Of a DNA stretch of 64,000 nucleotides, positions 6,171 through 37,353 are shown in pieces. The DNA comes from Myxococcota bacterium (GTDB lineage Bacteria > Myxococcota > Myxococcia > Myxococcales > Myxococcaceae): the NCBI GenBank assembly GCA_049322255.1, contig JBMORE010000144.1:1-64000 (forward strand). The letters run 5' to 3'. Every line of letters begins with the position of its first letter. Position 1 is the stretch's first letter. The notes under the pieces were generated by a model. That model did not search any database and had not been told where the DNA came from. It worked only from the letters and a program-made list of their open reading frames with translations. The position numbers and the translations under genes are program-made.

Positions 6171-6889
6171 AGCTTCGCCTCTTCGTCACCGCCACCGATA
6201 CCGGAGTGGGGAAGACCGAGGCGGCGTGCGCGTTGCTCTCCTTGCTCGCCGAGGCGGGAGAGCGACCTGCACCCTTCAAGCCGTACGAGAGTGGCTGCGC
6301 CGACCTCGCCCGTCCCCCCGATGCGCTGGCCCTGCAGGCCGCGGCGGGGAGCGACCTGCCGCTGGAGCGCGTGTGTCCCCATCGCTTCACTGCGCCCCTT
6401 GCTCCTGGAGTGGCCGCGCGAAGGTTGGGCGAGGAGCCGGACTTCGAAAAGACGCTCGCTGCCTTTCGCTCGTTTGAAGGGCGCTCGCTGGTGGTGGAAG
6501 GGGCGGGTGGCCTGTTCGTGCCCATCGACTCGCAGCGCGACGTCATCGACCTCATCGAAGCGCTGCGCCTGCCGGTGCTCCTGGTGGCGCGCGCCGGCCT
6601 GGGCACGCTCAACCACACCGCACTCTCCCTCGAGGCGCTGGCGCACCGTCGCATCGAGGTTCGAGCGGTATTGCTCAGCAAAAGCTCACTCACCCCTCTC
6701 CCCGTGGGAGAGGGCAAGGGTGAGGGACCCATGAACACAGAGGATCCGTCGGAGGCGGACAACGCCGTTCTCCTCGAGGAGCGCCACCGCATGCGAGTGC
6801 TCGGACCGGTGCCGTTCATCGCTGACGCGAAGGCGCGGAGGTTGGCGTTTCGCGCGACGCTCGCTGGGCTCGTCGGCGTCAGTGGCTGA
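6167..6889 (+). CDS. bioD: Dethiobiotin synthase, carrying an in-frame repeat-derived insertion
   Basis: [41 protein letters not shown] overlap with the bioA stop. Confidence 0.95.
6694..6726 (+). repeat. 33-bp BoxC-like palindromic/G-tract element, copy 1 (in bioD)
   Basis: CCCTCTCCC-CGT-GGGAGAGGG-CAA-GGGTGAGGG, translated as [11 protein letters not shown]. Confidence 0.9.
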
Positions 6890-7025
6890 CGATGATGGCC
6901 ATCACCGCGATGAGGAAGACCAACAAGAGCACCGTCGCCACCAGCACCAGCTGCGTATAGCCCGGTGCGCGCGGTTCGATTGCACCGGGTGCTACAGAGG
7001 TGAACCTCGTACCTGTGCGCAGCAA
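6879..7025 (-). CDS. Possible small single-pass membrane peptide
   Basis: Hydrophobic stretch [21 protein letters not shown] just before the stop. Only a TTG start (7025) is available, so uncertain. Confidence 0.3.
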   Translation of the reverse strand: MLRTGTRFTSVAPGAIEPRAPGYTQLVLVATVLLLVFLIAVMAIIVSH

Positions 7026-7088
7026 ATTTTTGTCGGATGCGGTCGCGAATTGGACGGCGGTGGTGATCCGCGCGACAACGCTTCGCGC

Positions 7089-7367
7089 ATGGCAGAGATC
7101 ATCGACCTGTCCCTCATCGCCGACGCCAAGCGCTACTTCCACAAGCTCCTCGACGCCCGCGGCATCAATTACTTCCTCCGCAAGGACGCGCGGCGGCCGT
7201 TTCAGATCGAGCAGTCGAAAGTGGAGATGGTGGTGCGCACCGCGGCCCGCTGCAGACCTCCCCACCTGCGCCGGCCGCCTCTGCCGGCGGTCGACCGCGC
7301 GCGAAGGGAGATTCGCCGCGAGCTGATTCGCCGGGTGGTGGAGGAGATGCTCCAGACCGGCTTGTAG
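7089..7367 (+). CDS. Small basic hypothetical protein (92 aa, MAEIIDLSLIADAKRYF...)
   Basis: Strong GC3 codon bias and plausible composition from ATG 7089. Confidence 0.7.
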   Translation: MAEIIDLSLIADAKRYFHKLLDARGINYFLRKDARRPFQIEQSKVEMVVRTAARCRPPHLRRPPLPAVDRARREIRRELIRRVVEEMLQTGL

Positions 7368-7493
7368 ACGCTCGTTCAGGCCGAGCCTCACGAGCATGTC
7401 GAGGGACGAGGCCCGGCTTCGCCCACGAATTGAACGCCGCGCAGAGGCGATGATACAGACGCCCCTGGCCGGTCGCGTACGAGGTCCTTTCCG

Positions 7494-9772
7494 ATGCAGC
7501 TCAGGCTGGTCGTGTGCCTCGCAGTGGTGAGCTGTACTTGTCGGCCGGGCCAGCTGGGTCAGGTGGAGGAGGCGCAGCTGCGCGCCTCTCCGATGCACCT
7601 GGTTCTCCCCGCCGCCTACGTCGGCTACCCCACTTCCGGTGTGGTCGAGGTTGCCAACGTGGGCGGGACACCGGCCTCGGTCGAGGTATCGGCGGCAGAG
7701 CCCTTCTCGGTGGAGACGGGTCAGCTCGAGCTGGTGACCGGGGAATCTCGTTCCTTGGTGGTGCGCTTTGCGCCGACGGCGGCGGGGCTCTTCGACGGGG
7801 TGCTGCGGATAGGAGCACTGGAGGTGACGCTGGCCGCCGAGGGGCTGGAGGTGCCGGTGTGCAGCGTACCGGCCAACGTCTGCGAGGAGACCCGCTTCGA
7901 AGCAGAAGCCGGGCAGTGCGTGACGACGCTCAAGGAGGAGGGCAGCTCTTGTCAGACGCGATGCATCGCCTCGGGCTCCTGTTTGGCGGGCGCGTGCCGC
8001 GGCCAGCTCGCCGACTGCGACGACGGTAACGCCTGCACCGTGGATGCGTGTGGCGAGGCCGAAGGCTGCGTCCACTCGTCCCGGGTGTGCCCAGCACCGG
8101 CAGGTCGGTGCCAAATTGCTCGCTGCGACCCTCTCACCGGGTGCGGAGCGGAGGAGGCGCCGGACGGCACGCTCTGTGGGCCAGATGACTGCAAGGCGAG
8201 CGAAGTCGACGTGTGCATCGCGGGGAAGTGCGTCCGCCGGCAAAGACCGGATCAGGGCCGCTGCGTCAACACCTGGGTTCCGGTCAACACGCCGGCGCGC
8301 TCGAGGCACGCGATGGCGTACGACCTGACTCGCCAACGCGTCGTTCTCTTTGGTGGGGGAAGTAGCGGCCACTTCGGCGACACCTGGGAGTGGGATGGAA
8401 CCACGTGGGTACAGCGGACGCCCGCGATGTCTCCCCCCGCGCGCGCCGGGCACGCGATGGCGTACGACACCGCTCGGCAACGCGTCGTCCTCTTTGGTGG
8501 ATGGAATGGCGTTCAATCTCTCGCCGACACCTGGGAGTGGGATGGAACCACTTGGGTGCAGCGGGCACCCACCACGTCTCCCCCCGCAGTCTCGAACCAT
8601 GTGATGGCTTATGACGTCGCTCGCCAGCGCGTCGTTGTCTTCAGTCGGGACTTTGGCGCCGTCCCGATCGGCACCTGGGAGTGGGATGGAACCACCTGGG
8701 TGCAGCGGATGCCCACCACGTCTCCTCCCGCGCTCATCAATCCTGCGCTGGCGTATGACATGGTTCGCCAGCGCGTTGTCCTCTTTGGTCATGAAGTTGG
8801 CGGCCTCGCCGATACCTGGGAGTGGGATGGAACCACCTGGGTGGAGCGGACGCCGGCGATGTCTCCCCCCGTGCGTACGAACCATGCCATGACCTACGAC
8901 GCGGTCCGGCAACGAGTAGTCCTCTTCGGGGGATATAACGGTTTCCAAGCCCTCTCGGACACNNNNNNNNNNNNNNNNNNNNNNNNNNNNNNNNNNNNNN
9001 NNNNNNNNNNNNNNNNNNNNNNNNNNNNNNNNNNNNNNNNNNNNNNNNNNNNNNNNNNNNNNCCTGGGTGGAGCGGACGCCGGCGATGTCTCCCCCCGTG
9101 CGTACGAACCATGCCATGACCTACGACGCGGTCCGGCAACGAGTAGTCCTCTTCGGGGGATATAACGGTTTCCAAGCCCTCTCGGACACATGGGAATGGG
9201 ACGGAACCACCTGGGCAGAGCGAACGCCCGCGGCGTCTCCCCCCCAGCGCTATGAGCACGCGCTCGCTTATGACACGACTCGCCAGCGCGTGGTCCTCTT
9301 CGGTGGCAACGGTGCCCAACCTCTGTCGGACACTTGGGAGTGGGATGGAACGACCTGGGTCCAACGGACGCCCACGACGTCGCCTCCCGCTCGCTATTTA
9401 CACGCGCTCGCCTACGACATGGCTCGCCAGCGCGTGGTTCTCTTCGGCGGAATCGGTACCCAACCTCTGTCAGACACTTGGGAGTGGGACGGAACGACCT
9501 GGGTGCAGCGAACGCCCGCGATGCCTCCCCCCGCACGGTTTGGGCACGCGCTCGCCTACGACACAGTTCGCCAGCGTGTTGTCCTCACCGGTGGGGTCAA
9601 TAGCGTTGTGCTCGCCGACACCTGGGAATGGGACGGAACCACATGGGTAGACCTGGCTCCGACCCGGTCGCCTGCGGTCGCGTATCATTCATTGGCTTAC
9701 GACGCCGCTCGCCAACGCCTCGTCCTCTTTGACGGCTCGAATTCCGCTGATACGTGGCTCTATCTTCCCTAA
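7494..9772 (+). CDS. Secreted protein or lipoprotein with an Ig-like domain, Cys-rich myxobacterial-type repeats and Kelch/galactose-oxidase-like repeats; spans the assembly gap
   Basis: Signal with Cys (LAVVSCTC), CDDGNACTVDAC-type repeat, and ~47-aa repeats HAMAYDxxRQRVVLFGG...DTWEWDGTTW on both sides of the gap. Collapsing the duplicated 127 bp joins the two ORFs in frame (683 aa). Confidence 0.8.
8963..9062. other. Scaffold gap (100 N) flanked by an identical 127-bp overlap
   Basis: 8836-8962 is identical to 9063-9189. Confidence 0.97.
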
Positions 9773-9788
9773 AGAAAAAGCCTGTCCA

Positions 9789-10592
9789 TCAAAAACGCAT
9801 CAAGACGCCGGCGCCATCGAGCGAGGGCACCAGGACCACCGAGACATCCTTCTTCGGCTCCTCACCGCCTTTGGGCCAGAACACCACGGTGGCGACGGCC
9901 GCGGCCAGGCCCACTCCAAAACCGATGTCCGCGAGGAGGGCCGAGCTCTGGGTGCGCTGCTGCGACTGTTGCTTCTGCGCCACCGTGCTCGCCTCGGTGA
10001 AGCGCCGCTTCTCTGCTTGCGCCTGTAAGCCAAAGAAGATTCCGGCACCCGCGCCCGCCGCCGCGACACCGCTGCTGACGAAGGCCAAGGTGCGCCCCCG
10101 GCTTTTCGCCTGCGCCTTCGCCTCTGCTTCCGCGCGCTGCTTGGCTTCGTATTCTTCGCGTTGCTTCTTCGCTGCCTCCGCCTCGGCGCGTGCCTTCTCC
10201 TCCAGCCGTTTTCGCTCCGCTTCCTGGGCGGTGCGGACCGCCTCTTCTTTGGCGATCAGCGAGCGCAGCCGGTCGAGAGCGAGGTTGGCCCTCTTTAACA
10301 GCGAAGGCTCGGTCTCCTCCGGGGCGGCGACGTAGCGCTGGTAGTACTCGACGGCTGCCTTGAGGTCTCCCGCCTGGTCGTACGCGCGGGCGATGTTGTA
10401 GAGGAGCTGCGGGTGCGGGTCGAGCGTGTTGGCCTCCTCGAGCTTGGCGGCGGCCTCGCGGTATGAGCCGCCGGTGTAGAGCTTCTCTGCTTCCTTCACC
10501 AAGGCCGCGGCCTTTTTGGACTTGGGTGAGGTGGCGGCGAAAGACGGTGCTGCGAGCAACACACCGACACAAAGGAGGAGGGTGTTTCGCAT
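9789..10592 (-). CDS. Exported tetratricopeptide-repeat protein with coiled coil and C-terminal hydrophobic segments
   Basis: Signal peptide, TPR motif LLYNIARAYDQAGDLKAAVEYYQRY, E/K/A-rich coil, two hydrophobic segments. Confidence 0.8.
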   Translation of the reverse strand: MRNTLLLCVGVLLAAPSFAATSPKSKKAAALVKEAEKLYTGGSYREAAAKLEEANTLDPHPQLLYNIARAYDQAGDLKAAVEYYQRYVAAPEETEPSLLKRANLALDRLRSLIAKEEAVRTAQEAERKRLEEKARAEAEAAKKQREEYEAKQRAEAEAKAQAKSRGRTLAFVSSGVAAAGAGAGIFFGLQAQAEKRRFTEASTVAQKQQSQQRTQSSALLADIGFGVGLAAAVATVVFWPKGGEEPKKDVSVVLVPSLDGAGVLMRF

Positions 10593-10614
10593 GAGGGGAA
10601 GAGTAGCGCGGGTT

Positions 10615-11406
10615 TCAGCGCGGGGACAGCTCGGCGGCGAGCAGGTCTGGCCGGTCGGTGATGAGGCCGTCGACGCCGATGGAGAGAAGCTCGCGCATCT
10701 TTTTCGGCTCGTTCACCGTCCAGACAAACACCGGGCAGCCGAGGCGGTGCGCGGCTTGGACGAGCTGCACGTCCACCAGACGTTTCCCCTCGTGGAAGTG
10801 CGGCAGCTCGAAGACGTGGTAGCGAGGATCGGCGAAGGAAGAGCCGCTGTGCATCCCCGCGATGAAGGCGGCGACCGAGTCGTGGGGGAAGAAGCGGCAG
10901 GCCTCGGGTAGAAGCTCCGCCACGTGCGCGGCCACGCCGTCGAGCTCGCTGCCCACCAACACCCGCTCCACCGCGTGCGTCTTGCGCAATACCCTGGCCA
11001 GCTCCTCGGCCGCCTCGGGGTACTCGGGTTTGACCTCGATGTTCAGCGGAACCTCGGGCAGCGCGTCGAGCACCTCATCGAGGCGAGGAATGCGCACGCC
11101 CTTGCCACGAAACGGGAAGGTCGCCCCACGGTCGATGGTGAAGCGGTGGCCGGCATCCAGCTTGGAAAGCTCAGCGTAGGAGAAGCACACCACCGGCCCT
11201 TCGCCGTCGGTGCAGCGCTCGACGGTGGCGTCGTGAGTCACCACCAATACTCCGTCGCGGGAGAGGTGCACATCGAGCTCGAGTGCGTGCGCTCGATGGA
11301 GACGTACCTCCGCCTCGAAGGCGACGAGGGTATTCTCCGGGTAGAGCCCGGCCCCGCCGCGATGGGCGATGTTCGCGGGCCGCGGCAGCCGGTCGAGGAA
11401 ACCCAC
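10615..11406 (-). CDS. Glycerophosphodiester phosphodiesterase
   Basis: IAHRGG, PENTL, ELDVHLSRDG, THD, NIEVK, WTVN, GVDGLITDRP. GTG start overlaps the pckG stop. Confidence 0.92.
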   Translation of the reverse strand: MGFLDRLPRPANIAHRGGAGLYPENTLVAFEAEVRLHRAHALELDVHLSRDGVLVVTHDATVERCTDGEGPVVCFSYAELSKLDAGHRFTIDRGATFPFRGKGVRIPRLDEVLDALPEVPLNIEVKPEYPEAAEELARVLRKTHAVERVLVGSELDGVAAHVAELLPEACRFFPHDSVAAFIAGMHSGSSFADPRYHVFELPHFHEGKRLVDVQLVQAAHRLGCPVFVWTVNEPKKMRELLSIGVDGLITDRPDLLAAELSPR

Positions 11407-13154
11407 TACAGGCGGGAGAGGAGGAGCTGGCGCTGCAACTCCAGCGTGCGAGGGAGCTTGTCCCCGAACTGTTTGAAGAACTCGCCGATCGACTCCAGCT
11501 CCGTCTTCCACTCGCCGATGTCGATATGGGTGGCGGCGTCGACGCGCTCAGGGGGAATATCGAGACCGGAGAGGTCGATGTGGCCCTCCTTGGGCACCCA
11601 GCCCAGCCGCGTCTCCTGCGCGCCCACCGAGCCGTGCGCGCGGTCGATGATCCACTTGAGCACGCGCATGTTCTCGCCGTAGCCCGGCCAGAGAAATTTC
11701 CCCTCCTTGTCCTTGCGGAACCAGTTCACCACGAAGATTTTCGGCGGGTAGGGGATGTGCTGCTGCATGTGGAGCCAGTGCTGCATGTACTCGCCCATGT
11801 GGTAGCCGCAGAAGGGCAACATCGCCATCGGGTCACGGCGGATGACGCCCACTTTTCCGGTGGCGGCGGCGGTGGTCTCGGAACCCAAGGTCGCGCCCAA
11901 GAACACCCCGTGCCCCCAGTTGAACGACTGCATCACCAGGGGCACCGTGTCCGAACGGCGGCCGCCGAAGATGATGGCGGAGATGGGCACCCCTTCGGGG
12001 TCGTTGACGTGCTTGGAGAGCACCGGGTTGTTGGTCATCGGGGAGGTGAAGCGGCTGTTGGGGTGAGCCGCTTTCTCCGCCGAGCCCTTCTTCCACGGGC
12101 GCCCCTGCCAATCGATGAGCTCCTCGGGAACCTCGCCGTCCATCCCCTCCCACCACACCGAGCCGTCCTTGGTGAGGGCGACGTTGGTGAAGATGGTGTC
12201 GCGGCTGATGGTCTTCATCGCGTTGGCGTTGGAGGAGAAGTTGGTGCCCGGAGCCACCCCGAAGTAGCCGGCCTCGGGGTTGATCGCCCACAGGCGCCCG
12301 TCCTCGCCCACCCGCATCCAGGCGATGTCGTCGCCCACCGTCCACACTTTCCAGCCGGCGAAGCGCTTGGGCGGAATCAGCATCGCGAAGTTGGTCTTGC
12401 CGCAGGCCGAAGGGAAGGCCGCCGCCACGTAGGTCATTCGCCCCTCTGGGTTCTCCACTCCGAGGATGAGCATGTGCTCGGCGAGCCATTCCTCCTTCTT
12501 CCCTAAGTAGCTGCCGATGCGCAGCGCCAGACACTTCTTGCCCAAGAGCGCGTTGCCCCCGTAGCCCGAGCCGTAGGACCAGATGGTGTTGTCCTCGGGG
12601 AAGTGACAGATGTAGCGCTTGTTGGGGTCGAGCTCGCCAGTGCAGTGCAGCCCGCGGTTGAAGTCGTCGGAGTCCCCGAGCATCTCCAGCGCCGGCTTTC
12701 CCATGCGGGTCATGATCCGCATGTTCAGCGCCACGTAGATGCTGTCGGTGAGCTCGATGCCCACCTTGGCGTGCTCCGAGCCCAAGGGCCCCATCACGTA
12801 CGGCACCACGTACAGGGTGCGGCCCTTCATCGAGCCGGCGAAGAGCTTGCCCAGCTTGGCGTAAGCCTCTTCGGGCGCCATCCAGTTGTTGGTGGGGCCG
12901 GCGGCTTCCTTGGTCTTGGAGCAGATGAAGGTGAGGTGCTCCACCCGCGCCACGTCGTTGGGGTTGGAGCGGTGCAGATAGCTGCCGGGGTGCTTGGAGG
13001 GGTTCAAGGGATTGAGAATGCCCTTGGCCACCGCTTCTTCGGTGAGGCGGCGCTTCTCTTCTTCGGAGCCGTCGAGCCAGACCACCCGGTCGGGTTGGCA
13101 CAGCTTGGCCATCTCACTCACCCAGCCGGTGAGGTGAGGGTTCTGCGAAGCCAT
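11406..13154 (-). CDS. pckG: Phosphoenolpyruvate carboxykinase (GTP)
   Basis: [70 protein letters not shown]. Start at ATG 13154. Confidence 0.97.
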
Positions 13155-13284
13155 CGAAGTGCTCCTTTCGACGAGCGAAAAGGGCAATCTACGTAGCTTG
13201 GTCGGCTGCCACCACGTCGGTTTTTGTCGGCGCGCCCGCTGGTGGACAGGTGGGCTCATCCCTTCCATCAGCGCGGGTGGGCTT

Positions 13285-13491
13285 TCAGTGAGGCCGAACT
13301 GCCGCGAGGAAGTCTCGAATGCGCCCCAAATCGAGCGTCGCCGCATGTACCCGGGCCCAGTCGATGTCCTCGTACCCGTGGAGGATGGCGTTTCTCATTC
13401 CCCCTGCCTCGGCCATCCGTTGCGCGAGCGCCGAGGAAATGACTCCGTGGTCGGCCAGCAATCTTCGCATGGCTCGAGCCGCTTTTATCAA
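13285..13491 (-). pseudogene. C-terminal remnant of a HepT/DUF86-like HEPN ribonuclease toxin
   Basis: [35 protein letters not shown] contains the RNxxxHxY motif. Only ~68 codons, with an in-frame stop just upstream and no intact nucleotidyltransferase partner. Confidence 0.65.
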
Positions 13492-13572
13492 GTCACAAAA
13501 GCCGCGGTGTCAGTGCCCGACCGGCCCGAGCCGTCGGAGCTCAACGTCACCTCGTCCCCCGGCCGCGCCTGG

Positions 13573-14739: not shown

Positions 14740-14767
14740 GGGCTCCCAAGGCGCTTTCGCAAAAAGG

Positions 14768-15716: not shown

Positions 15717-18700
15717 GGGGGGGGGGGGGGGGGCCCGCCCCGAGGGTGTCGAAGGCGGTGAGCACGGTACGGTAACCTCCCGCGAGAAGGAAGCGGCGAG
15801 AGGTGGCGACGCCTTCGCCGGGTGAGCTGCCGTCGCCGAAACGCCAATGGAAGAGCAAGGGAAGCGCGCTGGGGTCACCCTTCGACGCCGAAGCGTCGTA
15901 GGCCACCGTCAGCGCCGCTGGGCCGGTGGTGGGAGTGGCGGTGAAGGCAGCGACCACCGGGCTGGGCGCCGCGCCGGAGGCGACATCGACGGCGAGCTCG
16001 TAACGGTCCTCCCCCTCGGGGTTCGACACCCGCACGCACAGCGCGGTGCTCCCCGGAGCGGCGGGCGTCCAGCGAACCGCGCCCGAAGCCGCGTCGACTT
16101 GGAAGCCAGCGGGTCCGCCGCAACGCTCGTAGAGGAGGGGAGGCGTCCCCACGGCGCGTACGCTTCCGCTCGCGTTGTAGCGGTAGGGGACGTTCACCGC
16201 GGCGCGGAGGTTGGCGTCTTCGAGGATGACCGGCCCGGGCGCGGGGGCCACCACGATGCCCGACTGGGTGCCGCGCACCGCCGCGTTTCCCACCACGACG
16301 ACGGTGACGTCGAAGGTGCCCGGTGAGCCGAAGGAGAGCGCGGCCGTAAACAGGTGCAGCCCGGCGTCGGCGGGGGTGAAGGCGAAGCTGGGGGGAAGCA
16401 CCGCGGTGGCATCGGTCGATTGGAACTGCACCGTGCCGGTAAAGCCGGTGACCCGGTTGCCCGCCGTGTCCACCACCTCCACGGTGACGTCGTGGGGTGC
16501 TCCCACCTGGGTGGGGGAGGTGATGCCGCTCACCCGTAGCGCCGCCGCCGGTCCGGGGTCGACCTGAATGCCCACTTGCTTTCCGGTGACGGAGGCGTTG
16601 GCGAGGTCGGTGGCTTCGAGCTCGTGCACCCCGACGGTGTTCAAGGTGGCAAAGAAACCGCGCGTGCCCATGTCGGCGGCGGTGAAGGAGTAGTCGGGCG
16701 GTCGCTGCGCCGCGGAATCCGTCGAGAAAAAGCGCACCGTGCCCTGGTACGAGGTCGCCACGTTTCCGAAGGCGTCATGGGCGGTGACGGTGAAGGCACC
16801 GGCCACCCCGCGGGCGATGGGAGAGGGGAAGCCAGCCACCCTCAGCACCGCCGCCGCGCCCGGGTCGATGCGGGCGACTTGAGTGGCGGAGGTCAGGTTG
16901 GTGGCCGAGGCGGTGAGGGTGGGGGCTCCCGCGGTCGTGTCGCGGTAGTACACCGGGGAAGCTTGCGCCTGGCCGGCCGGCACCGTCGTCGAAGGGGTGG
17001 CGGTCTGGCAGTTGACGTCGGTGAAGAAGCCGCCGTTGGCGGAGGTGGTGGAGAGAGAAATGGGGGTGCTCGTTCCCACCGCGGCGCTCTGCCCGAGCGT
17101 GTTTCTCACCTCGAGCTGAATGGGCCCAGAGCAGGCTCCTGCCGAAAGCTGTGGCGCCGCGGAGAGGAAGACCAAGCTGGAAGCAGGCGCAGGGGTGATG
17201 GTCTGCACCTGAACCGCGCTGCTCGCCGCGAAGCTGGGGGCGACGGTGAGGGAGGGGTTGCCGGGAGTCACGTCGCGGAAGCGGAAGCTCGCCGTGGCCA
17301 CGCTGCCGTCGAGCAGCACGCTGGGCGCCAGCGCCAGGGCGCAGGTGGCGTCGCTGGCGGCGAAGAAGCCTAAGGTGGCGGAGGAGGCGCTCAAGGTGAG
17401 TGTTCCCGCCGTGGGGCTGGGGTTGCCCAGCGCGTCCCGTACCTCCACGGTGGCCACCGCCGAGCAATCACCGGCCTGCACCGTCTGCGCCACGGTGGTG
17501 AAGACGACGGCGGCCGCCGGGCCGGGGCCGACGTCGAACGGGCCGCTGGTCTCGCTGGCAAGTCCGGTGGAGGAGGCGACCAAGGTGTAGCCGTTGCCGG
17601 TGCGGTTCAAAGAAGCGGCGGCGAAGCTCGCGATGCCAGCGACGGCTGCTTGGGGACCTCCGCCGCTGAGCGTCGCTCCGGTGGGGTTGTTGCCCAGCGT
17701 CAGGGTGATGCTCGCCGTCGAGCTGTCGACCCGGTTGCCCACGGCGTCGCGCACCTCGACTTGCAGAGGCGACAGCGGAGCGCCCGCGGTTCCGCTAGCG
17801 GGCGAGGCGGTGAAGGCGAGCACCGCCGCAGGCCCGGGGACGATGGTCTGTACTTGGTCGATGGAGGTGAAGCCGGGCGCGCTCACGGTGATGGTCGGCG
17901 TGCCCAGCCGGGTGTCGCGGAAGTAGAAGGTGACCGCGTCGGCGCCTGCGCCGATGGTGGCGGAGGTGGTGGTGCTGGTGCAGCCCGAGTCCGCATAGAA
18001 GGTGTTGCCGGTGGAGCTGCTCGCCAGCCCCAAAAGGAGCGCCTGCGCGACGGTGGTGGGTGAGTCGCTCGGGTCTCTCACGGCGACGCTGATGGACGTG
18101 CACACGCCCGCCCCCGCCGTCCGCGGCGGCGAGGTGAAGACCAGGGCCGTGGGGCCCCAGACGATGTTGCCGGGGGTTTGCCCGCCGAAGTCGAGGTCGA
18201 ACGGCTCCCCCGCCAGCGGCCCCGAGGCGAATTCGAAGCGCAAGGGCGAGGGGTTGAGCGAGCCGTTCACGCTCACCGCTCCGTTCACCCCTGACTCGTT
18301 GAGGAATTGGCAGTTGGTGCTGGCGGAGGGAAGGGCGGTGGCTCCCAAGGTGAGCAGGGCCCCGGCGGCAGGCGGGCGATGAAAGGTCCCGTCGTCGAGC
18401 TGGAGCACCTGGCACCCGGCGGCGAGGTTCAAGCCCTGCGCGTTGGCGTAGTCGATATCGAAGTACTGACCGCGGAAGCTCCCGGTGACGGTGAGGGCGT
18501 AGCGGCCTGGGGTCACCACGTCGGTGGAGGTGACCGACGACGGCGAAGCGCTCGTTCCCAAAAGCTCCAAGAGCCCGCGGATCGTCAAGGAGGTGTTGCC
18601 GGAGAGCGCGAGGCGGGCTCCTGGCTCGATGTCCAGGGTGGTGCCGGCGCTCGACGAGGAGGAGAAGGCCGACACGTTGTCAATCGCCAGGGTCTTTCCG

Positions 18701-22455: not shown

Positions 22456-22580
22456 GTGGCGCCCCCTTGGGTCGGGCCCCGAGTATACCGAGGTCGCGCG
22501 CGATCTACTTTGCTCAGATGTGAGTGCGCCGCTTGGAGCGGGCGGAAGTATGATGGCGTCGCACCTCGGGGGACTACCAC

Positions 22581-27167: not shown

Positions 27168-27256
27168 CTCGCCCTCGACAACGGGCAGGAAAACGATGCC
27201 CCGCTGGGGAAGTCAAGGGGTGATCCACGCTCCCATCTTGGCTAGGCTCGCCGTCC

Positions 27257-29602: not shown

Positions 29603-29673
29603 AACGTTTTCCCAAACGCTTTCAGCTCCTTTCTCCTTGTCAGCTCGCCCTCCTCCTCGGTAGCTCGGGCGTC

Positions 29674-30804
29674 GTGAACGAACCGCGCGTGGTCGGCCCC
29701 GAGCAGCTGAGCATCCTGCTGAGGCAGCTTCGAGACGATGGGTTTCAGCTCATCGGTCCCACGGTGCGCGACGGAGCCATCGTTCACGGTGAGCTGCGCG
29801 GCGCCGAGGACCTTCCCATCGGCTGGACGGAAGAGCAGGAGGCGGGTCGTTACCGCCTGGTTCGACGCGAGGACGACGCCTGGTTCGGCTATTCCGTGGG
29901 GCCACAGTCGTGGAAGCAGCTTCTCTTCGTTCCGCGGCTGAAGCTGTGGAGTGCACGGCGGGAGAACGGTGGCTTTGTCGTGGAGACGCCGTCCGGTGAG
30001 GCTCCCCGGCTGGCGCTGATTGGCGCGCGTTCTTGCGACCTCCACGCCATCGAGGTGCAGGACCGCACCTTCCTCCGCGGCCCTTATGTCGACTCAGACT
30101 ACGCCGCGCGGCGCCAAAGCCTCTTCGTGCTGGCGGTGCACTGCGGCCAGGCGGGGGGGACTTGCTTCTGCGTCTCGATGAAGACCGGGCCGCGGGCTAC
30201 CTTCGGGTTCGACATCGCGCTCACCGAGCTGTTGAACCCTCACCGCTTCCTCGCCGAAGCGGGCAGCGACCGGGGGCGCGAGATGCTCGCGCGGCTGGGA
30301 GCGCAGCGAGCCGATGAGCAAGAACGCGCCGAGGCCGATGCGGTGGTGGCCCGCACCGCTGCGTCGATGGGCCGTCAGATGAACACGACGGACATCAAAG
30401 AGCTCCTCTACCGCAACCCCGAGCACCCCCGGTGGGACGACGTCGCCCAGCGCTGCCTGGGCTGCACCAACTGCACCCTGGTGTGTCCCACGTGCTTCTG
30501 CGCGAGCGTGGAGGACGTGAGCGATTTGCAGCAGGAGAACGCGGAGCGCTGGCGCCGGTGGGACTCCTGCTTCACCCTCGACCATTCCTATCTGCACGGT
30601 GGCCCGGTGCGCGCAAGCATCAAGTCGCGCTATCGCCAGTGGCTCACCCACAAGCTGGCGAGCTGGATTGATCAGTTCGGCACCTCGGGGTGCGTCGGTT
30701 GCGGCCGCTGCCTCACCTGGTGCCCGGTGGCCATCGACATCACCGAAGAAGTGGCGGCGATTCGGGCCACCGATGGCGCGGTGAGCGAAGGGAGTGTTTC
30801 ATGA
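29674..30804 (+). CDS. hydB: Group 3b [NiFe] hydrogenase (sulfhydrogenase) beta subunit, 4Fe-4S
   Basis: [59 protein letters not shown]. Confidence 0.92.
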
Positions 30805-31262
30805 CCGCCCCGCTGAACGAGCTCACCTCCCATCCATTCGTGAAGGAGCTCACCGAGGAGCAGCTGCGCCGGCTTTTCCCTTGCGCGCGGGTGATTCGTT
30901 TCGCGCCGGGCGCCTACGTCTTTCGCGAGAACGCCAGCGCCGACACCTTGTATCTGCTTCGCAGCGGGCGGGTCACCCTCGAGCAGCAGATTCCCGGCCA
31001 GGGCACGGTGCAGCTGGAAAACCTGCGCACCGGTGACGTGCTCGGGCTCTCGTGGATTTTTCCCGGTGGACGTTGGGTAGCCGACGCGCGCGCGGTGGAG
31101 ACCACCGAGGCGGTGGCGGTGGACGCCAGCTGCTTGCACGCGACGATGAACGCCGACCCGGGGTTGGGGTTGGCCCTCGCCAAACAACTCATCTACCAGC
31201 TCTACCATCGCCTGGAGCGCGCACGGCTGCAGCGGCTCGATGTGTATCGGGAGGGTGCGTGA
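30801..31262 (+). CDS. Cyclic-nucleotide-binding (Crp-type sensor domain only) protein
   Basis: [31 protein letters not shown]. 153 aa with no HTH. Confidence 0.88.
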
Positions 31263-32149
31263 CAGCGCCTGACCCCATGCTGCCCACGCCGGTGAAAGTC
31301 GTTGGCGTTCGGCGCGAGGCCCCCGGGGTGGTGACGCTCACTCTCCAGCCAGGGAAAGAACGACGAGCGAGCGCGGTGCGGTCCCCTCTCCCTCTGGGAG
31401 ATGAAAAAGGTGAGGGGCGTCCTCTTCGCGCATTTGCTCCTGGTCAGTTCAACATGACCTACGTCTTCGGAGTGGGCGAGGTGCCCCTCTCCTGCACCGG
31501 AGACCCGGGACGCTCCGAGGTGGTGGAACACACGGTGAAGGCGGTGGGCGCGGTATCGAGCGCGCTGTGCCAGCTGAAAAAGGGCGCTTGGCTGGGACTG
31601 CGCGGGCCCTTTGGCCGGCCTTGGCCGATGGCACAGACGCGGGGAGAGGACTTGGTGCTCATCGCCGGCGGCATCGGTCTGGCACCGTTGATGCCGGTGG
31701 TGCATCAGGTGCTCGCCCAGCGCAGCGACTACGGGCGGGTGCAGCTCTTGGTCGGCGCGCGCAGCCCGAAGGGGCTGCTCTACCCGCTGCAACTGGAGCG
31801 ATGGGCGCGCGAGGGCAAAATCGACGTGCGAGTCACGGTGGACCACGCGGGGACGGAGTGGACGGGAAGGGTGGGAGTGGTGCCGGCGCTCATCGACGAG
31901 CTCAACCTGGAAACGTCACGAACGGCGGTCTTCGTCTGCGGCCCGGAAATCATGATGCGCTTCTGTGTGCGCGCCCTGCTTCGCCAAGGCGTCCGTCCGG
32001 CGCGGGTGTTTCTCTCCCTGGAGAGGAACATGAAGTGCGCGGTGGGCTTTTGCGGCCACTGCCAATACGGGCCGAGCTTCGTGTGCAAGGACGGGCCGGT
32101 GCTCTCTTACGAACGCATCGAACCGCTCTTTTGGCGACGGGAGGTGTGA
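31259..32149 (+). CDS. hydG: Group 3b hydrogenase gamma subunit (FAD/NAD(P)-binding, 2Fe-2S)
   Basis: [57 protein letters not shown]. Confidence 0.92.
31384..31416 (+). repeat. 33-bp element, degenerate copy 2 (in the gamma subunit)
   Basis: CCCTCTCCC-TCT-GGGAGATGA-AAA-AGGTGAGGG, translated as [11 protein letters not shown]. Confidence 0.8.
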
Positions 32150-32926
32150 GTGGCGCGCCGACGCAAACCGAAGCTGGCGGTGTTCAAGTTCGCGTCCTGC
32201 GACGGTTGCCAGCTGAGCCTGCTCGACCTGGAAGACCACCTGCTCGAGCTGGCCGGAGCGGTGGACATCGCCTATTTCAAGGAGGCGACCAGCCGCGAGT
32301 CGCGTGGTCCGTTCGACCTCACGCTGATTGACGGCTCCATCTCCACCCCGGAGGACAAAGAGCGCATCTACGAGGTGCGCCGTCGCTCGCGCCGCCTGGT
32401 GGTGCTGGGGGCTTGCGCCACCTCGGGCGGCATTCAGGCGCTACGCAACTTCGCCGACATGGAGGAATACCGCGCGGCGGTCTACGCCAAGCCGGAGTAC
32501 ATCGCGACGCTTACCACCTCCACCGGGGTGGCCGACCACGTGCCGGTGGACTTCGAGCTGCGCGGCTGCCCGCCGAACAAGCACCAGCTGCTGGAAGTGG
32601 TGAGCGCCTTCCTCGCCGGACGCAAGCCCTCCATCGCCTCCCATTCGGTGTGCGTGGAGTGCAAGCTCGAGGGCAACGTCTGCGTGATGGTCACCGGCAC
32701 GCCCTGCCTGGGCCCGGTGACCCACGCCGGGTGTGGAGCGCTCTGTCCCAGCTACCTGCGCGGGTGTTACGGCTGCTACGGGCCGATGGAGGCGCCCAAC
32801 ACCGCTTCCCTCGCGCGTGCCTTCGCCGCCGTCGGCTATTCCCAAACCGAGCTTTTGCGGGTGTTTCGCACCTTCAACCCCAACGCTCCTGCGTTTCGCG
32901 CCGAGAGCCAGAAGCATGAACGGTAA
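32150..32926 (+). CDS. hydD: Group 3b hydrogenase delta (small) subunit
   Basis: [52 protein letters not shown]. Confidence 0.93.
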
Positions 32927-34211
32927 GAGCCGCACCCTCCGGGTGAATTACCTCGCCCGCGTGGAAGGCGAGGGACGGCTCGTCGTGCGGCTGAAGGGAA
33001 ACCGCGCCACCGAGGTGCAGCTCTCCATCTTCGAGCCGCCGCGCTTCTTCGAGGCCTTCTTGCGCGGGCGCTCGTACCGCGAGGCCCCGGACATGACCTC
33101 GCGCATCTGCGGCATTTGTCCGGTGGCGTATCTGATGAGCGCCTGTCACGCGATGGAAGACGCGGTGGGGATTCGGGTGGAGGGCCCCTTACGTGCGCTT
33201 CGCCGGCTGATCTACTCAGGCGAGTGGATCGAGAGCCACGCCTTGCACGTCTTCCTTCTCCATGCGCCCGACTTCCTCGGCTACCCCGACGCGATGGCGA
33301 TGGCCAAAGAGCACGGGGAATGGGTGAAGAAGGGCCTGCGAATGAAAAAGGCGGGCAACGCGGTGATGGAGCGGCTGGGTGGAAGAGAGATTCACCCCAT
33401 CAACATCCAGGTGGGCGGCTTCTACCGGGTGCCGGGGCGCGGGGAGCTGGACGAGCTTCTCCCCGAGCTTCGGTGGGGGCGCGAGGCGGCGGCGGAGTGC
33501 CTGGAGTGGGCGAGCAGCTTCACCTACCCCGTCCTCGAGCGCGACTACGAGCTGGTCGCCTTGCGCCATCCCCAGGAGTACCCGATGTGCGAGGGCCGGG
33601 TGGTCTCCTCGCGTGGGCTGGACATCGAGGTGCGGGAGTACGAGCAGCACTTCGCGGAGGAGCAGGTGCCGCACTCCCATGCGCTCCACACCCGGAGAGT
33701 AGGCGGCGGCTCGTGCTTGAGCGGGCCACTGGCGCGCTACCACCTCAACTTCGACCGGCTGCACCCGTGGGTCCAACAGCTCGCCCGGCGCATGGGGCTT
33801 TCGCCGCCGGTGAAGAACCCCTTCCGCAGTCTGCAGATAAGGCTGTTGGAGATTGCTCAGGCGTTCCAACAGGCAATCGAGATCATCGAGGCGTACGTCC
33901 CGCCCACGGAGGCATTCGTCCCGGCCACCCCGCGAGCGGCCATCGGCCATGGCGCGACGGAGGCTCCCCGCGGGCTGCTCTACCACCGGTACGCGCTCGA
34001 CGAGACGGGCACCATCGCCGAGGCGCGCATCGTGCCGCCCACCTCGCGTAACCAACTGGCCATCGAAGAAGACTTCTTCGCCATCGCCCCCGAGCTGGCC
34101 GCGCTTCCCCACGCCAAGGCCACTCACCGCGCCGAACAGGTGGTGCGTAACCACGACCCCTGCATCTCCTGCGCGACCCACTTCCTCACCTTGCGAATCG
34201 AGAGAGACTGA
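32916..34211 (+). CDS. hydA: Group 3b [NiFe] hydrogenase alpha (large) subunit
   Basis: [16 protein letters not shown]1 motif [21 protein letters not shown]2 motif DPCISCATH followed by a cleavable tail. Confidence 0.95.
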
Positions 34212-34212
34212 A

Positions 34213-34677
34213 ATGCGCGCGCGCGTCATCGCTTTGGGACAGAGGGCTGCCGGGGACGACGGGGTGGGCTTGTCGGTGTTGGAGTGGCTGCGCGCGTACG
34301 GTGTGCCCGCGCAGATGGAGCTGCGGCAGGCAGCCGAGGCAAGCGCGCTCTTGGAGCTGTTGCAGACTCCCTCGCCCACGGTGGTGGTGGACGCGGTGCT
34401 GGCCACTCCGGCGGGCCGGGTGCTGGTGCTCACTCCCGATGAGCTCGATGCCCGAGGGCTTCTCGCCGCGTCCAGTCACGGCTTGGGCGTCGGACAGGTG
34501 GTGCAGCTTGCGCGCACCCTGCATGCCGAGGCGGTCTCTCCGCACATCACCATGGTCGCGGTGAGCATCGAACGGCCCGAACGTTACGGGTTGGGGCTCT
34601 CGCCCCAAGTGGCGGCGGCGGTTCCCCAGGCGGGCGCGCGGGTGATGGCTCTGGCAGGAGTGGAATGCGATGCATGA
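34213..34677 (+). CDS. Hydrogenase maturation protease
   Basis: ALGQRAAGDDGVG, VVVDAV, SSHGLG. Directly follows the large subunit. Confidence 0.88.
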   Translation: MRARVIALGQRAAGDDGVGLSVLEWLRAYGVPAQMELRQAAEASALLELLQTPSPTVVVDAVLATPAGRVLVLTPDELDARGLLAASSHGLGVGQVVQLARTLHAEAVSPHITMVAVSIERPERYGLGLSPQVAAAVPQAGARVMALAGVECDA

Positions 34678-35011
34678 ATCGGCGCTGTCGAAACAAATTC
34701 TCGACGCAGTGTTGGAGCGGACACGGGCCGAGGCGCCCTCCCGCATTCGCCGCGTGTTGGGCTGGGTGGCGGAGACGGAAACCCTCTCGGCGCAGAGCTT
34801 GAGCTTCCATTTTTCTGCCCACGCGCGTGGCACCCCTGCCGCCGAGGCGGTGCTCGAGCTTCGGCTCGTCCATGTCGAGGCACGCTGTAGCGGTTGCGCC
34901 CACGTGTACCGCCCGGAGCACCACCTCCTGCTCTGTCCTCGGTGCGGCGCGACCGAAGGGGAGCTGCTCGGCCAAACCGGCTTGGGGGTAGACGCGGTGG
35001 AGGTGGAGTAG
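34670..35011 (+). CDS. hypA: Hydrogenase maturation nickel metallochaperone
   Basis: N-terminal MHE and two CxxC motifs (CSGC, CPRC). Confidence 0.93.
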   Translation: MHESALSKQILDAVLERTRAEAPSRIRRVLGWVAETETLSAQSLSFHFSAHARGTPAAEAVLELRLVHVEARCSGCAHVYRPEHHLLLCPRCGATEGELLGQTGLGVDAVEVE

Positions 35012-37353
35012 TGGAACGACGGCTCGCCATCTCCATCGGGGGCGTGGTGCAAGGGGTGGGGTTTCGCCCCTTCGTCTTCACCGCGGCGGCCGAGCACGGC
35101 CTCTCCGGCTGGGTGCGCAATGGACCGGACGGGGTGCGCCTGGAGGTGCAGGGCCCGGAAGGAGCGGTGCAGACGTTCGTCGATCAGCTTCGCCGGGCGC
35201 CCGCCCCCGCGCGCGTGGAGACGGTGGAGATAGAGGACCGCCCGCTCTCTTCCGGCCGAGGGTTCTTCATCGAAGAGAGCGAGCTCGATGCCGCGCCTCG
35301 TCCCTCATTGCCCGCCGACCAAGCCACCTGCTCGCTCTGCGTGGACGAAATCCTCACTCCCGGCACCCGGCGTTTCCACTACCCCTTCACCAATTGCGCC
35401 CGATGTGGCCCGCGCTACTCGCTGATTGAGGCGCTCCCTTACGACCGCGCTCGTACCACCATGAAGGGCTTCGGCCTCTGCGCGGAATGCGAGGCGGAGT
35501 ATTGCCGCCCGGCCGATCGGCGCTTCCACGCCCAGCCCATCGCCTGTCCCCAATGTGGGCCTGCCCTCTCCCTCTGGGAGAGGGAAAGGGCGAGGGGTGT
35601 CAGCTCGGGGAATTCACGCCCCTCACCCCGACCCTCTCCCAGAGGGAGAGAGAGCGGGGACGCGCTGGCCAAAGCGACGCAGGCGCTGGGCGAGGGAAAG
35701 GTGCTCGCGTTGCAGGGCCTGGGCGGATTTCAGCTCTTGGTAGACGCCACGTCTCCCGATGCCGTGATGCTTTTGCGAAAGCGCAAGCACCGAGAGGAGA
35801 AGCCCTTCGCGGTGATGGTACGCACCTGCGAAGAAGCGCGCGCGCTGTGCGAGCTGAGCGCCGCGGAAGAGGAAGCCCTTCGCTCCCGAGAAGCTCCCAT
35901 CCTTCTCCTCCGGCGACTCCCTCTGGGAGAGGGTGGGGGTGAGGGGCGCGTAGCATGTCCAGAAGTCGCCCCCAACAATCCTCGCCTCGGAGTCATGTTG
36001 CCGTACACGCCGCTCCACCGCTTGCTTTTGGAGGCGGTGAGCCGCCCGCTGGTGTGCACGAGCGGAAATCTTTCCGAGGAGCCGATGTGCATCGACGTCG
36101 GCGAGGCGCTCGCACGCCTCAAAGACGTCGCCGACGTCTTCCTCGTTCACGACCGTCCCATTGCCCGGCCGGTGGACGATTCGGTGGCGCGCGTCGGGCC
36201 CGATGGCTTGGAGCTGCTCCGCCGCGCCCGCGGGTTCGCCCCGCTTCCTTTGCGGCTTTCACGCCCGGCTCCTTGCACCTTGGCGGTGGGGGCGCAGCTC
36301 AAGAGCACGGTGGCGCTCCTGCAGGACGATCAGGTGGTGGTGAGCCAGCACCTGGGGGACCTCTTCAGTCTCGAAGGCCGAGCGCTGCTCGAACGCACGG
36401 CGCGGGACTTGGTGCGCTTCTTTTGCGCGCGCCCGATGGTCATCGCGTGCGATGCGCACCCCGACTACGCCTCGACGCAGCTCGCCGAGCAGTTGGGGCG
36501 GGAGTGGGACGTTCCACTCGTGCGGGTGCAGCATCATCACGCCCACGTCGCTGCGTGCGTGGCGGAGCACGGCCTTTCCGGCTCGGTGCTGGGGCTCGCC
36601 TGGGACGGGGCGGGGCTAGGCGACGATGGGACGCTGTGGGGCGGGGAGGCGCTGGTGGTGAACGAGACGGGCTTTCGCCGAGCCGGTCATCTTCGTCCCT
36701 TTCGTCTCCCCGGTGGTGAGCGGGCGATGCGCGAGCCAAGGCGCGCGCTCCTGGGGCTTTTGCACGAAGTGTTCGGAGCGCAGGCGCCCGCCGTGGGTGG
36801 CCCACACCCACGCGCGCTGTTCACCTTGCTCGAGCGGGGCACCCACGCCCCTCGCACCACCAGCGTGGGGCGGCTCTTCGACGCGGTCGCCGCGTTGCTC
36901 GAGTTGCGCCGTGAGCCGGGGTTCGAAGGACAGGCGGCGATGCTCGTCGAATTCGCGGCCGATTCGGCGACGGACGTCGAGCCGTATTCGTTTCCGCTGA
37001 GCGACGAGGCTCCGTGGATTGCCGACTGGGAGCCGCTCATTCGTGAGCTGCTCTACGACCGGGAGCGCGGCACCTCGGTGGCGGTCATGTCGGCGCGCTT
37101 CCACGAGTCGCTCGCTGCGCTGGCGGAGGCCTTCGCCCTGCGCGCGGGCTTGCCAAACGTGGTGCTCTCGGGTGGCTGCTTTCAGAACCTTCGCCTGGCC
37201 ACTCGGGTGAAGGAGCGCCTGCGGGCCCGAGGTTTCCGAGCGTTCACGCCGCGGCTCTTTCCTCCGAACGATGGAGGAATCTCCCTCGGGCAAGCAGTCG
37301 TGGCGTCGAGACTCCCTCTCCCCCTGGGAGAGGGGAGGGGTGAGGGGCAATAG
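35011..37353 (+). CDS. hypF: Carbamoyltransferase HypF, carrying four repeat-element copies
   Basis: [12 protein letters not shown], CxxC zinc fingers ([24 protein letters not shown]), [26 protein letters not shown]. Confidence 0.96.
35564..35652. repeat. Inverted doublet of the 33-bp element, copies 3 and 4 (in hypF)
   Basis: 35564-35596 is CCCTCTCCC-TCT-GGGAGAGGG-AAA-GGGCGAGGG on +. 35620-35652 is CCCTCACCC-CGA-CCCTCTCCC-AGA-GGGAGAGAG, a reverse copy. Spacer is 23 nt. Confidence 0.9.
35917..35945 (+). repeat. 33-bp element, 5'-eroded copy 5 (in hypF)
   Basis: CTCCC-TCT-GGGAGAGGG-TGG-GGGTGAGGG, translated as [10 protein letters not shown]. Confidence 0.88.
37314..37346 (+). repeat. 33-bp element, copy 6 (encodes the HypF C-terminus)
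   Basis: CCCTCTCCC-CCT-GGGAGAGGG-GAG-GGGTGAGGG, translated as [11 protein letters not shown], followed by Q and the stop. Confidence 0.9.

Follow-up and report, generated by a model that had tools for sequence, protein, structure and literature searches.

Palindromic repeats that survive in frame within protein genes, adding peptide segments to the products, are known from Rickettsia (RPE). To our knowledge, no nuclease cassette has been described for RPE or for the enterobacterial RU/ERIC units. The latter were also found intragenically (Delihas 2007, PMC2759123). For BoxC/TM_ECO repeats the published pattern is CCCTCNCCC-N3-6-GGGNGAGGG-N3-GGGNGAGGG, with 23 copies in E. coli MG1655, described as always intergenic, a maximum of 143 copies among the surveyed genomes, and triplex formation studied by CD/NMR (Holder 2015, PMC4666352). 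The main text of this dedicated paper does not contain the word "intragenic" and, as far as it goes, describes no link to a mobile element, no origin and no mobilising agent (Holder 2015, PMC4666352).

In the 64-kb window, which is the whole stretch of DNA analysed, six copies of CCCTCTCCC-N3-GGGAGAGGG-N3-GGGTGAGGG were found at ≤3 mismatches (Table 1), compared with 0 in 100 dinucleotide-preserving shuffles of the window. This upheld the six copies in bioD, a hydrogenase gamma gene and hypF listed by the initial annotation; its fifth copy is real, and the start given as 35917 was moved to 35913, the first four bases being degenerate. A looser scan (≤5 mismatches) gave nothing extra except self-overlap of the palindrome, and these 64 kb therefore contain 0 intergenic copies. 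The motif, in the window as in the genome, fits the published BoxC/PIT/TM_ECO pattern, and 165 copies genome-wide are exact; the likeness to the E. coli BoxC/intrastrand-triplex repeat had been noticed before. As in the published BoxC/TM_ECO description, a C arm, a 3-nt loop, a G arm, a second 3-nt loop and a mirror G arm follow each other, copies are dispersed and numerous, related genomes differ strongly in copy number, and inverted pairs join two subtypes, the two tails here differing within pairs.

Table 1. Positions of the repeat copies and their host genes in the 64-kb window.
Feature	Position	Strand	Remarks
bioD, dethiobiotin synthetase	6161..6889	+	Pfam AAA_26, E 3.5e-34; homologues named dethiobiotin synthase
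BoxC/TM_ECO copy	core 6694-6726, unit 6689..6733	+	0 mismatches; in frame in bioD
Hydrogenase gamma-like oxidoreductase subunit	31277..32149	+	NAD_binding_1, DHODB_Fe-S_bind; start uncertain
Degenerate copy	31384..31416	+	3 mismatches; keeps the frame of the FAD/NAD-binding hydrogenase gamma-like gene
hypF, carbamoyltransferase	35011..37353	+	Acylphosphatase, zf-HYPF, Sua5_yciO_yrdC, HypF_C, HypF_C_2; three insertion loci
Left half of inverted doublet in hypF	35564..35596	+	1 mismatch; 11-residue reading
Doublet spacer, 23 nt	35597..35619	.	reverse complement GCGTGAATTCCCCGAGCTGACAC
Right half of hypF doublet, reverse orientation	35620..35652	-	1 mismatch; 11-residue reading
hypF copy with degenerate 5' arm	35913..35945	+	3 mismatches; 10-residue reading
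Copy forming the HypF C-terminal tail	37314..37346	+	0 mismatches; 12 residues, then stop 37351-37353

The unit is not 33 bp long, as first assigned, but about 42-45 nt, composed of a 9-bp hairpin and a third G block. This length follows from the sequence logo, which reaches background about 3-5 nt upstream and 4-10 nt downstream of the core, and from the insert in BioD, which is exactly 15 residues (45 nt). For a single unit only the hairpin is predicted (-12.7 kcal/mol, z -2.3), the intrastrand triplex being putative here, and the hypF doublet is predicted to fold as one long hairpin of -34.4 kcal/mol (z -4.75); the reverse-complemented spacer of this doublet follows the genome-wide doublet spacer consensus. 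By description only, the behaviour is like that of RPE and RU/ERIC, in-frame palindromes adding peptide segments, whereas those repeats are about 100-170 bp long, with RPE at about 100-150 bp.

Translation confirmed that the six copies are read in three ways in total and that none disrupts the frame; the reading PLPxGEGxGEG is common to four of them. The orthologues carried no inserts at these sites: 13/13 for BioD, 10/10 for HypF, and 2/2 for the hydrogenase gamma-like protein, which lacked about 15-22 residues at the copy site (the start of this gene was taken from a conserved MLPTP and is uncertain). The inserts are therefore lineage-specific, in line with the earlier proposal that the palindrome adds peptide loops to housekeeping enzymes; the peptides were missing from all orthologues examined. 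In 115 of 119 database BioD homologues a 20-residue segment was found where this protein has 35 residues. When mapped onto the predicted structure, as the initial annotation had advised, the BioD insert sits in a low-confidence surface loop, modelled as coil at pLDDT 54-78, with strand 167-177 before it and helix 196-209 after it. The HypF doublet contributes about 22 residues between the zinc-finger and YrdC-like domains, also absent in the 10 orthologues, the copy at 35913 gives a net gain of 7 residues, and the tail copy begins directly after the conserved GQAVVA, with the stop 7 nt past the copy. The closest BioD homologues in a search of 5.8 billion proteins showed ≤70% identity; because no close relative exists, no empty site at nucleotide level and no insertion event was seen. 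Nor was any empty allele near enough for a comparison with homing-endonuclease-type selfish genes, which cleave an empty target site-specifically and are copied into it.

Assembly support was drawn from Logan contigs of the one public run in which this DNA occurs, probably its source. Contigs spanned the copies at 31384, 35564 and 37314, the first within a 9.5-kb contig reading G for T at 31402; at 6694, 35620 and 35913 they broke off within the repeat. On either side of each window copy the sequence belongs to neighbouring parts of a single gene, and at these last three sites the two sides align next to each other in orthologues, which argues against a chimeric join. That the copies are assembly artefacts, as the three contig ends could suggest, or that the peptides are selected Pro/Gly-rich protein modules, as the reading shared by four copies could suggest, is most improbable: three copies are spanned, the flanks are continuous, the peptides are missing from orthologues, and the repeat DNA is translated in five different frames, from both strands. 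Five of the six frames of the unit are stop-free, and internal singlets in the genome used all five, roughly 9:4:5:7:2 (hand tally, 27 peptides listed). Mean mismatches were alike for internal (0.47) and intergenic copies (0.51). Both results suggest that conservation acts at the DNA level rather than the protein level.

The 4.85-Mb myxobacterium-like genome contains 277 copies at 235 loci (≤3 mismatches), and five scrambled control patterns gave 0 copies at the same threshold. By our home-made codon-usage gene caller, 33 loci were internal to ORFs, 71 overlapped gene 3' ends and 131 were intergenic, class counts that are only approximate because the caller mistakenly put two loci of this window in the intergenic class. 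The statement that copies occur only inside genes is thus true of the window and fails for the genome, and the all-intragenic pattern of the window is a local cluster. Pfam families were recognised in 24 of 30 further ORFs with internal copies, e.g. MoaA, Mur ligase, FtsI-type PBP, TsaB, PilQ and Lhr. The internal and gene-end loci differ from E. coli BoxC, for which "always" intergenic describes one strain and is not a definition; the copy number, the copies that supply stop codons and a DUF559 cassette with a unit at both ends also set this genome apart from BoxC as published (Holder 2015, PMC4666352).

Across the genome, most copies were located either at the 3' end of a gene or in a short spacer of an operon. 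A same-strand stop codon was contained in, or lay ≤12 nt before the start of, 113 of the 277 copies (offsets from the stop: 39 at -30, 2 at -25, 2 at -24 and 70 at 0 to 12 nt), a nearness partly forced because the median operon spacer is only 19 nt; for 39 copies the upstream gene terminates at a TGA supplied by the repeat itself. These positions would suit a host-selected structural or regulatory element, such as a 3' hairpin or triplex stabilising mRNA, punctuating operons, or giving a stop or Shine-Dalgarno-like sequence, with the intragenic copies accidental. Such an element would also suit the orientation bias in tandem (operon) spacers (77 same vs 36 opposite), the under-use of divergent (promoter) spacers (13/192 classifiable loci vs 608/4005 spacers genome-wide) and the GGAG/GAGG-rich block that terminates the unit in either orientation. 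However, the next start lay within 13 nt similarly often for same-orientation (32/77) and opposite-orientation copies (11/36), and at least 33 ORFs carry in-frame copies. The repeat is moreover absent from 22 of 31 relatives, a patchiness unexpected for a core function, its variants differ from genome to genome and are linked to a nuclease cassette, and E. coli copies are stated to have no promoter or terminator activity (Holder 2015 citing earlier work, PMC4666352). We regard selection by the host as an unlikely explanation.

The genome's single full-length DUF559 gene (G000:C47:17869-18222, a 117-residue product) is flanked by inward-facing copies, + at C47:17834 and - at 18240, so that a DUF559/Vsr-like gene bracketed by two units, which the initial annotation had proposed to look for, exists. 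The gene matches PF04480 (E 1.6e-37, 128 bits against a cut-off of 20.6, profile positions 5-108 of 109) and its protein matches PDB 3hrl "endonuclease-like protein" (E 1.9e-23); no transposase domain was recognised in it by Pfam. A copy at both ends was found for 7 of 4359 called genes, and inward-facing single copies for the DUF559 gene only. The end-repeats of this cassette are imperfect (1 and 2 mismatches) compared with the 165 perfect dispersed copies, and the doublet spacers show a two-tail asymmetry matching that of the cassette ends.

This arrangement resembles REP/REPIN-RAYT systems: the hairpins are short and GC-rich, units occur singly or as inverted doublets (39 "+-" pairs among the 235 loci), they lie at gene ends, their cognate variants are specific to each genome, and one single-copy gene has its own repeats on either side. 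Movement by a RAYT (Y1, IS200/IS605-like) transposase would agree with the hairpin architecture and with the lack of a target-site duplication, none standing out at fixed offsets (best 15/193 for 3-mers, median 4). We consider it very unlikely: the genome-wide check for RAYT/TnpA-Y1 proposed earlier gave 0 PF01797 matches here (completeness 99.6%) and matches in 6 of 14 control genomes, and the gene truly flanked by units encodes a PD-(D/E)xK-type DUF559 fold. The third mirror block of the unit is a further difference from REP. The doublets also resemble MITEs, being like the autonomous cassette minus its ORF and, with the other copies, far outnumbering the coding element; unlike in MITEs, no target-site duplication was found and the coding element is the small nuclease. 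The lack of a fixed target duplication makes classical cut-and-paste chemistry unlikely.

Among 31 related genomes, nine contained the general pattern, eight with 21-344 exact matches and one with a single match, and 22 had none. Full-length DUF559 loci in relatives were bracketed in 10 of 11 cases, in a phylum sample 21 of 27 DUF559 loci scored above all 48 shifted controls, and in other phyla three of six sampled loci were bracketed (Deinococcus, Azospirillum, Sphingomonas); the E. coli DUF559 locus had units downstream only. The variant at the cassette ends tracks the dispersed copies of the same genome: in G013 both cassette ends and most of the first 100 of its 232 dispersed copies match a TCGTA-loop variant, in G005 both ends and most of the first 100 of its 182 dispersed copies match a GCGA-loop variant, and in G009 long-loop variants likewise match their own cassette ends.

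Homogeneous copies in the hundreds also occur in two relatives that gave no DUF559 by HMM or protein search, G007 with 250 copies (completeness 86%) and G017 with 125-164 (completeness 99%); in G017 a PemK/MazF gene lies within the sole bracket of cassette size. An E. coli control genome had no PF04480 match, though E. coli K-12 has 23 copies. G007 and G017 could mean that the units are mobile and moved by another agent, host recombination or repair acting on non-B DNA or another element, with DUF559 cassettes merely lying in or carried by doublets, and the motif has been tied to local rearrangement (Holder 2015, PMC4666352). The frequencies of bracketing in relatives and in the phylum sample, against the background of 7/4359 genes, and the match of cassette ends to the dispersed variant in three genomes make this rather unlikely. 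The DUF559 nuclease probably drives the spread of the repeat, a role that stays inferred because two repeat-rich relatives gave no DUF559; the mobile, non-autonomous palindrome of the initial annotation is supported, with the nuclease as its probable driver.

The six copies belong to the BoxC/PIT/TM_ECO family and likely represent here a selfish, non-autonomous mobile unit derived from the inverted end-repeats of a DUF559 (Vsr-like) cassette of about 0.44 kb. Copying would be started by a nick or cut that the nuclease makes at the hairpin or triplex structure; doublets may be cassettes after loss of the ORF, and singlets solo ends. Insertion would be widespread, with selection purging all but the harmless insertions. 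The surviving copies would then be those located at gene ends, together with intragenic ones that contain no stop, have a length divisible by three and fall in linkers or surface loops, where they encode Pro/Gly-rich coil.

BoxC/TM_ECO repeats are widespread across bacterial phyla, and the exact 33-nt pattern was found in Planctomycetota, Chloroflexota, Verrucomicrobiota, Cyanobacteria, Acidobacteriota, Pseudomonadota and others. With slightly less than even confidence, we suggest that these BoxC/triplex repeats, unexplained since the 1990s, may be the ends of a minimal selfish element that encodes only a DUF559 nuclease of about 110 residues, and that hundreds of solo and paired ends provide stop codons where genes end and settle in frame within essential genes, which stay intact. 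Such an element would represent a novel type of mobile DNA driven by a nuclease, each nuclease lineage being matched to its own variant. Beyond the main text of Holder 2015 (PMC4666352), the present genome adds a heavy in-frame colonisation of housekeeping genes, a repeat TGA that routinely serves as stop codon, and a nuclease cassette that has the repeat at both ends, in a variant that agrees with the dispersed copies. This match between cassette and variant makes the old question of BoxC origin testable at the bench. The in-frame copies matter for annotation, where they lead to starts set in the wrong place and to spurious Pro/Gly-rich stretches, and they bear on how proteins gain new loops.

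The repeat motif CCCTCTCCC-N3-GGGAGAGGG-N3-GGGTGAGGG was matched six times in the window at up to three mismatches and never in 100 shuffles, and a looser scan of the window for extra copies found none. By translation and Pfam, all six copies lie within the open frames of bioD, a hydrogenase gamma-like FAD/NAD subunit gene and hypF. Scan and translations confirmed the six in-frame copies and the peptide readings of the initial annotation; its fifth copy was real, but starts at 35913 instead of 35917. The motif matches the published TM_ECO pattern (alias BoxC or PIT), as the initial annotation had supposed in linking it to the BoxC/triplex repeats. An Rfam search of the window at gathering thresholds returned no family. 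The feature is genuine and is a member of a known repeat family.

Coordinates of the repeat copies, their host genes and the DUF559 cassette (C47 is another contig of the same genome)
Feature	Position	Strand	Basis and details
Repeat copy	6694	+	pattern scan
Repeat copy	31384	+	pattern scan
Repeat copy	35564	+	pattern scan
Repeat copy	35620	-	pattern scan
Repeat copy	35913	+	pattern scan
Repeat copy	37314	+	pattern scan
bioD	6161-6889		translation, Pfam
Hydrogenase gamma-like FAD/NAD subunit gene	ends 32149		translation, Pfam
hypF	35011-37353		translation, Pfam
DUF559 gene, sole full-length one in the genome	C47:17869-18222		117 residues; Pfam E 1.6e-37; PDB relative 3hrl
Cassette end unit	C47:17834-17866	+	pattern scan
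Cassette end unit	C47:18240-18272	-	pattern scan

Logan contigs of one public run, which contains the window region and is probably the source of the DNA, bridged three of the six copies and broke inside the other three; the gene is continuous across each copy, which argues against misassembly. No RNA data set is listed as containing this DNA. At 31402 in the gamma-like gene, the Logan contig has G where the window has T, and G restores one position of a degenerate GGGAGAGGG arm; the discrepancy reflects strain variation or a difference in assembly. Elsewhere in the window, a run of N at about 8,900-9,100, read as X in the ORFs of both strands, splits a Kelch-repeat/Cys-rich protein gene and is masked sequence or a scaffold gap.

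The window lies on contig C144. The whole genome (4.85 Mb, 196 contigs, 66.5% G+C, 99.6% complete) is small compared with most family relatives (4.4-11.5 Mb). The best identity of its BioD to any database protein was 70%, and the genome probably represents a new genus-level lineage. The best-named BioD homologues belong to Myxococcaceae genera, so the source organism is probably a myxobacterium without a close sequenced relative.

An exhaustive scan found 277 copies in this genome (165 exact, 85 with one mismatch, 17 with two and ten with three), and five scrambled patterns gave no match in the same scan. The copies form 235 loci: 194 singlets, 39 inverted '+-' pairs with start-to-start distances of 41-62 nt, one '-+' pair and one triplet. 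In a logo of 267 copies, conservation fades over about 3-5 nt upstream and about 4-10 nt downstream of the 33-nt core; the unit is therefore about 42-45 nt long. Two subfamilies are told apart by their tails. The unit is predicted to fold as a 9-bp DNA hairpin (-12.7 kcal/mol) and the hypF doublet as one long hairpin (-34.4 kcal/mol, z -4.75). The exact 33-nt pattern was present in many phyla among the matches listed (one genome per species).

As far as the alignments show, the intragenic window copies are insertions. In HypF, a doublet insert of about 22 residues in the linker between the zinc-finger and YrdC-like regions and seven extra residues at 35913 were absent from all ten orthologues (44-63% identity), whose C-terminal tails were also unrelated at the site of the 37314 copy. 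About 15-22 residues of the gamma-like subunit were absent from both orthologues compared, and the BioD insert from 13 of 13. Among 119 database homologues of BioD (61-70% identity), 115 have a segment of 20 residues against 35 here, making the insert exactly 15 residues, or 45 nt; a near-identical BioD lacking it was sought in the database, and none exceeded 70% identity. In the AlphaFold model of BioD (mean pLDDT 91.5) the insert is predicted as a coil between strand 167-177 and helix 196-209, with pLDDT 54-78. The HypF orthologue of genome G030 (L009) has a different insert, about 40 residues long (…PRCAGEGEP…PRSCGEGWEG…), in the same linker, aligned to window 35564-35652, which suggests that this linker repeatedly tolerates repeat-derived inserts. 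Four BioD homologues (P0038, P0081, P0082 and P0114, one named Archangium gephyra) contain repeat-type peptides (PHPxPLP at residues 8-10; LSAWER at 115), probably because the annotated start takes in an upstream unit, or because the inserts are independent.

Placement over the genome was classified with our own codon-usage gene caller (4359 genes, 91.5% coding). Units were internal to an ORF, with same-frame coding signal on both sides, at 33 of 235 loci (40 of 277 copies), and at 71 loci (94 copies) an ORF continues into the unit and stops there or no more than 15 codons on; both counts are lower bounds, because the caller wrongly classed the window copies at 31384 and 37314 as intergenic. 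The remaining 131 loci (143 copies) were intergenic. With 91.5% of the DNA coding, these counts mean that the repeat is strongly depleted inside genes. The initial annotation, which described an in-frame mobile palindrome found only inside genes, was largely right, but not in taking intragenic location as the rule: the four internal loci of the window are a local cluster.

The ORFs that host internal units are real genes. Outside the window, 24 of 30 have Pfam families, including MoaA, Mur ligase, FtsI-type PBP, TsaB, PilQ, Lhr, MacB, LolA, TonB-dependent receptors, a siroheme-synthase-like protein and a Ser/Thr kinase. The internal units are often located between domains. By hand tally of 27 internal singlet peptides, orientation was unbiased and all five stop-free frames were used (about 9:4:5:7:2), and internal copies were not more diverged than intergenic ones (mean mismatches 0.47 versus 0.51). 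The use of five frames and the equal divergence indicate conservation at the DNA level.

Many copies were found at gene ends: 113 of 277 hold a same-strand stop codon or start within 12 nt downstream of one. In 39 the unit's own TGA ends the ORF with the tail PSPxGRGxG, in four more the ORF stop lies elsewhere within the unit, and in 70 the stop is 0-12 nt upstream, often abutting the unit when subfamily-specific 5' extensions are counted. The nearest gene end on either strand gave the same peak (39 at -30), with 59 in the same versus 25 in the opposite orientation at 0-9 nt. TAA was commoner among adjacent stops (24/69) than genome-wide (645/4274). The 192 classifiable non-internal loci comprised 141 in tandem spacers (77 same orientation, 36 opposite, 28 multi-copy, of which 27 '+-' and one '-+'), 38 in convergent and 13 in divergent spacers, and the whole genome has 2783, 614 and 608 such spacers, respectively. 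The closeness to stops is partly forced, since the median tandem spacer is only 19 nt, and we read the gene-end pattern as survival of harmless insertions and not as proof of targeting. Donation of a Shine-Dalgarno sequence was rejected as an explanation: both orientations end in a G-rich block, and the distance to the next start differs little between them. At nine tandem-spacer loci of this genome our caller set the start of the next gene at a GTG inside GGGTGAGGG; annotation pipelines may make the same call and add repeat-derived residues to proteins.

A Y1/RAYT transposase was sought in our genome, and none was present. A gene for a DUF559 (PF04480, Vsr-like) nuclease with flanking copies, one of the candidates that the initial annotation proposed looking for, was found between convergent genes. 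Of the 4359 called genes, only seven carry a copy at each end, and the DUF559 gene alone among them has single inward-facing copies. Inverted units of this type, spaced by an inner distance of about 350-450 nt, enclose 10 of the 11 full-length DUF559 loci in 30 relatives and our genome. In a phylum sample of 150 further genomes (151 searched with our own), 21 of 27 evaluable DUF559 loci scored above all 48 shifted controls. Beyond the phylum, six DUF559 loci were compared: those of Deinococcus, Azospirillum and Sphingomonas are bracketed, the E. coli one has downstream units only and two have no units. Of the phylum-sample DUF559 loci, 28 had not been counted with the relatives (L170 and L173 were excluded), and seven of these 28 (L255, L257, L259, L260, L261, L265 and L266) lie no more than about 700 nt from where a contig begins. 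Assemblies that break at the flanking repeats would give this pattern, which means that draft genomes may yield too low a count of DUF559.

Relatives apparently repeat-free by the fixed pattern contained variants of it. Of the 232 copies in G013, the first 100 listed are mostly a TCGTA-loop variant, as are both ends of its DUF559 cassette; G005 has 182, most of the first 100 listed being a GCGA-loop variant that matches its own cassette; and long-loop variants in G009 match the DUF559 cassette there. These matching variants are the most telling pointer to DUF559 as a possible mover. Doublet spacers share a two-tail asymmetry with cassette ends, so doublets look like cassettes minus the ORF.

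Other observations weigh against DUF559 as the mover. DUF559 was looked for and not found in relatives G007 and G017, with 250 and 125 exact copies. A PF04480 search of the E. coli control genome gave no match. The end-repeats of our own cassette are slightly degenerate, target duplications were sought at fixed offsets and none stood out, and no nucleotide-level empty site was found for the inserts or the cassette. The pilB-like gene upstream of the cassette has 11 orthologous loci, which were rejected as a clean empty site because the downstream gene is syntenic in none of the 11. A PemK/MazF-type toxin gene in G017 (L244, G017:C35:141-572) lies exactly between two inward-facing units, the only cassette-sized bracket there; a small gene flanked in this way need not, therefore, belong to the element itself. 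The DUF559-repeat link is a well-supported association, short of a demonstrated mechanism.

The accessible text of Holder et al. (2015, PMC4666352) counts 3610 TM_ECO copies over 262 proteobacterial genomes, with a maximum of 143 in any one genome, and places the 23 copies of E. coli MG1655 'always' between genes. It also describes five inverted pairs, each made of two different subtypes, and triplex formation in vitro, and it gives no mobile-element link. Intragenic copies of other repeats (RU/ERIC) are described in the accessible part of Delihas (2007); the literature searched, with subscription journals outside it, yielded no intragenic BoxC copies and no DUF559-repeat link. Beyond what that text of Holder et al. 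covers, in-frame colonisation of genes, donated stop codons and a cognate DUF559 cassette are confirmed here for this genome and its relatives.
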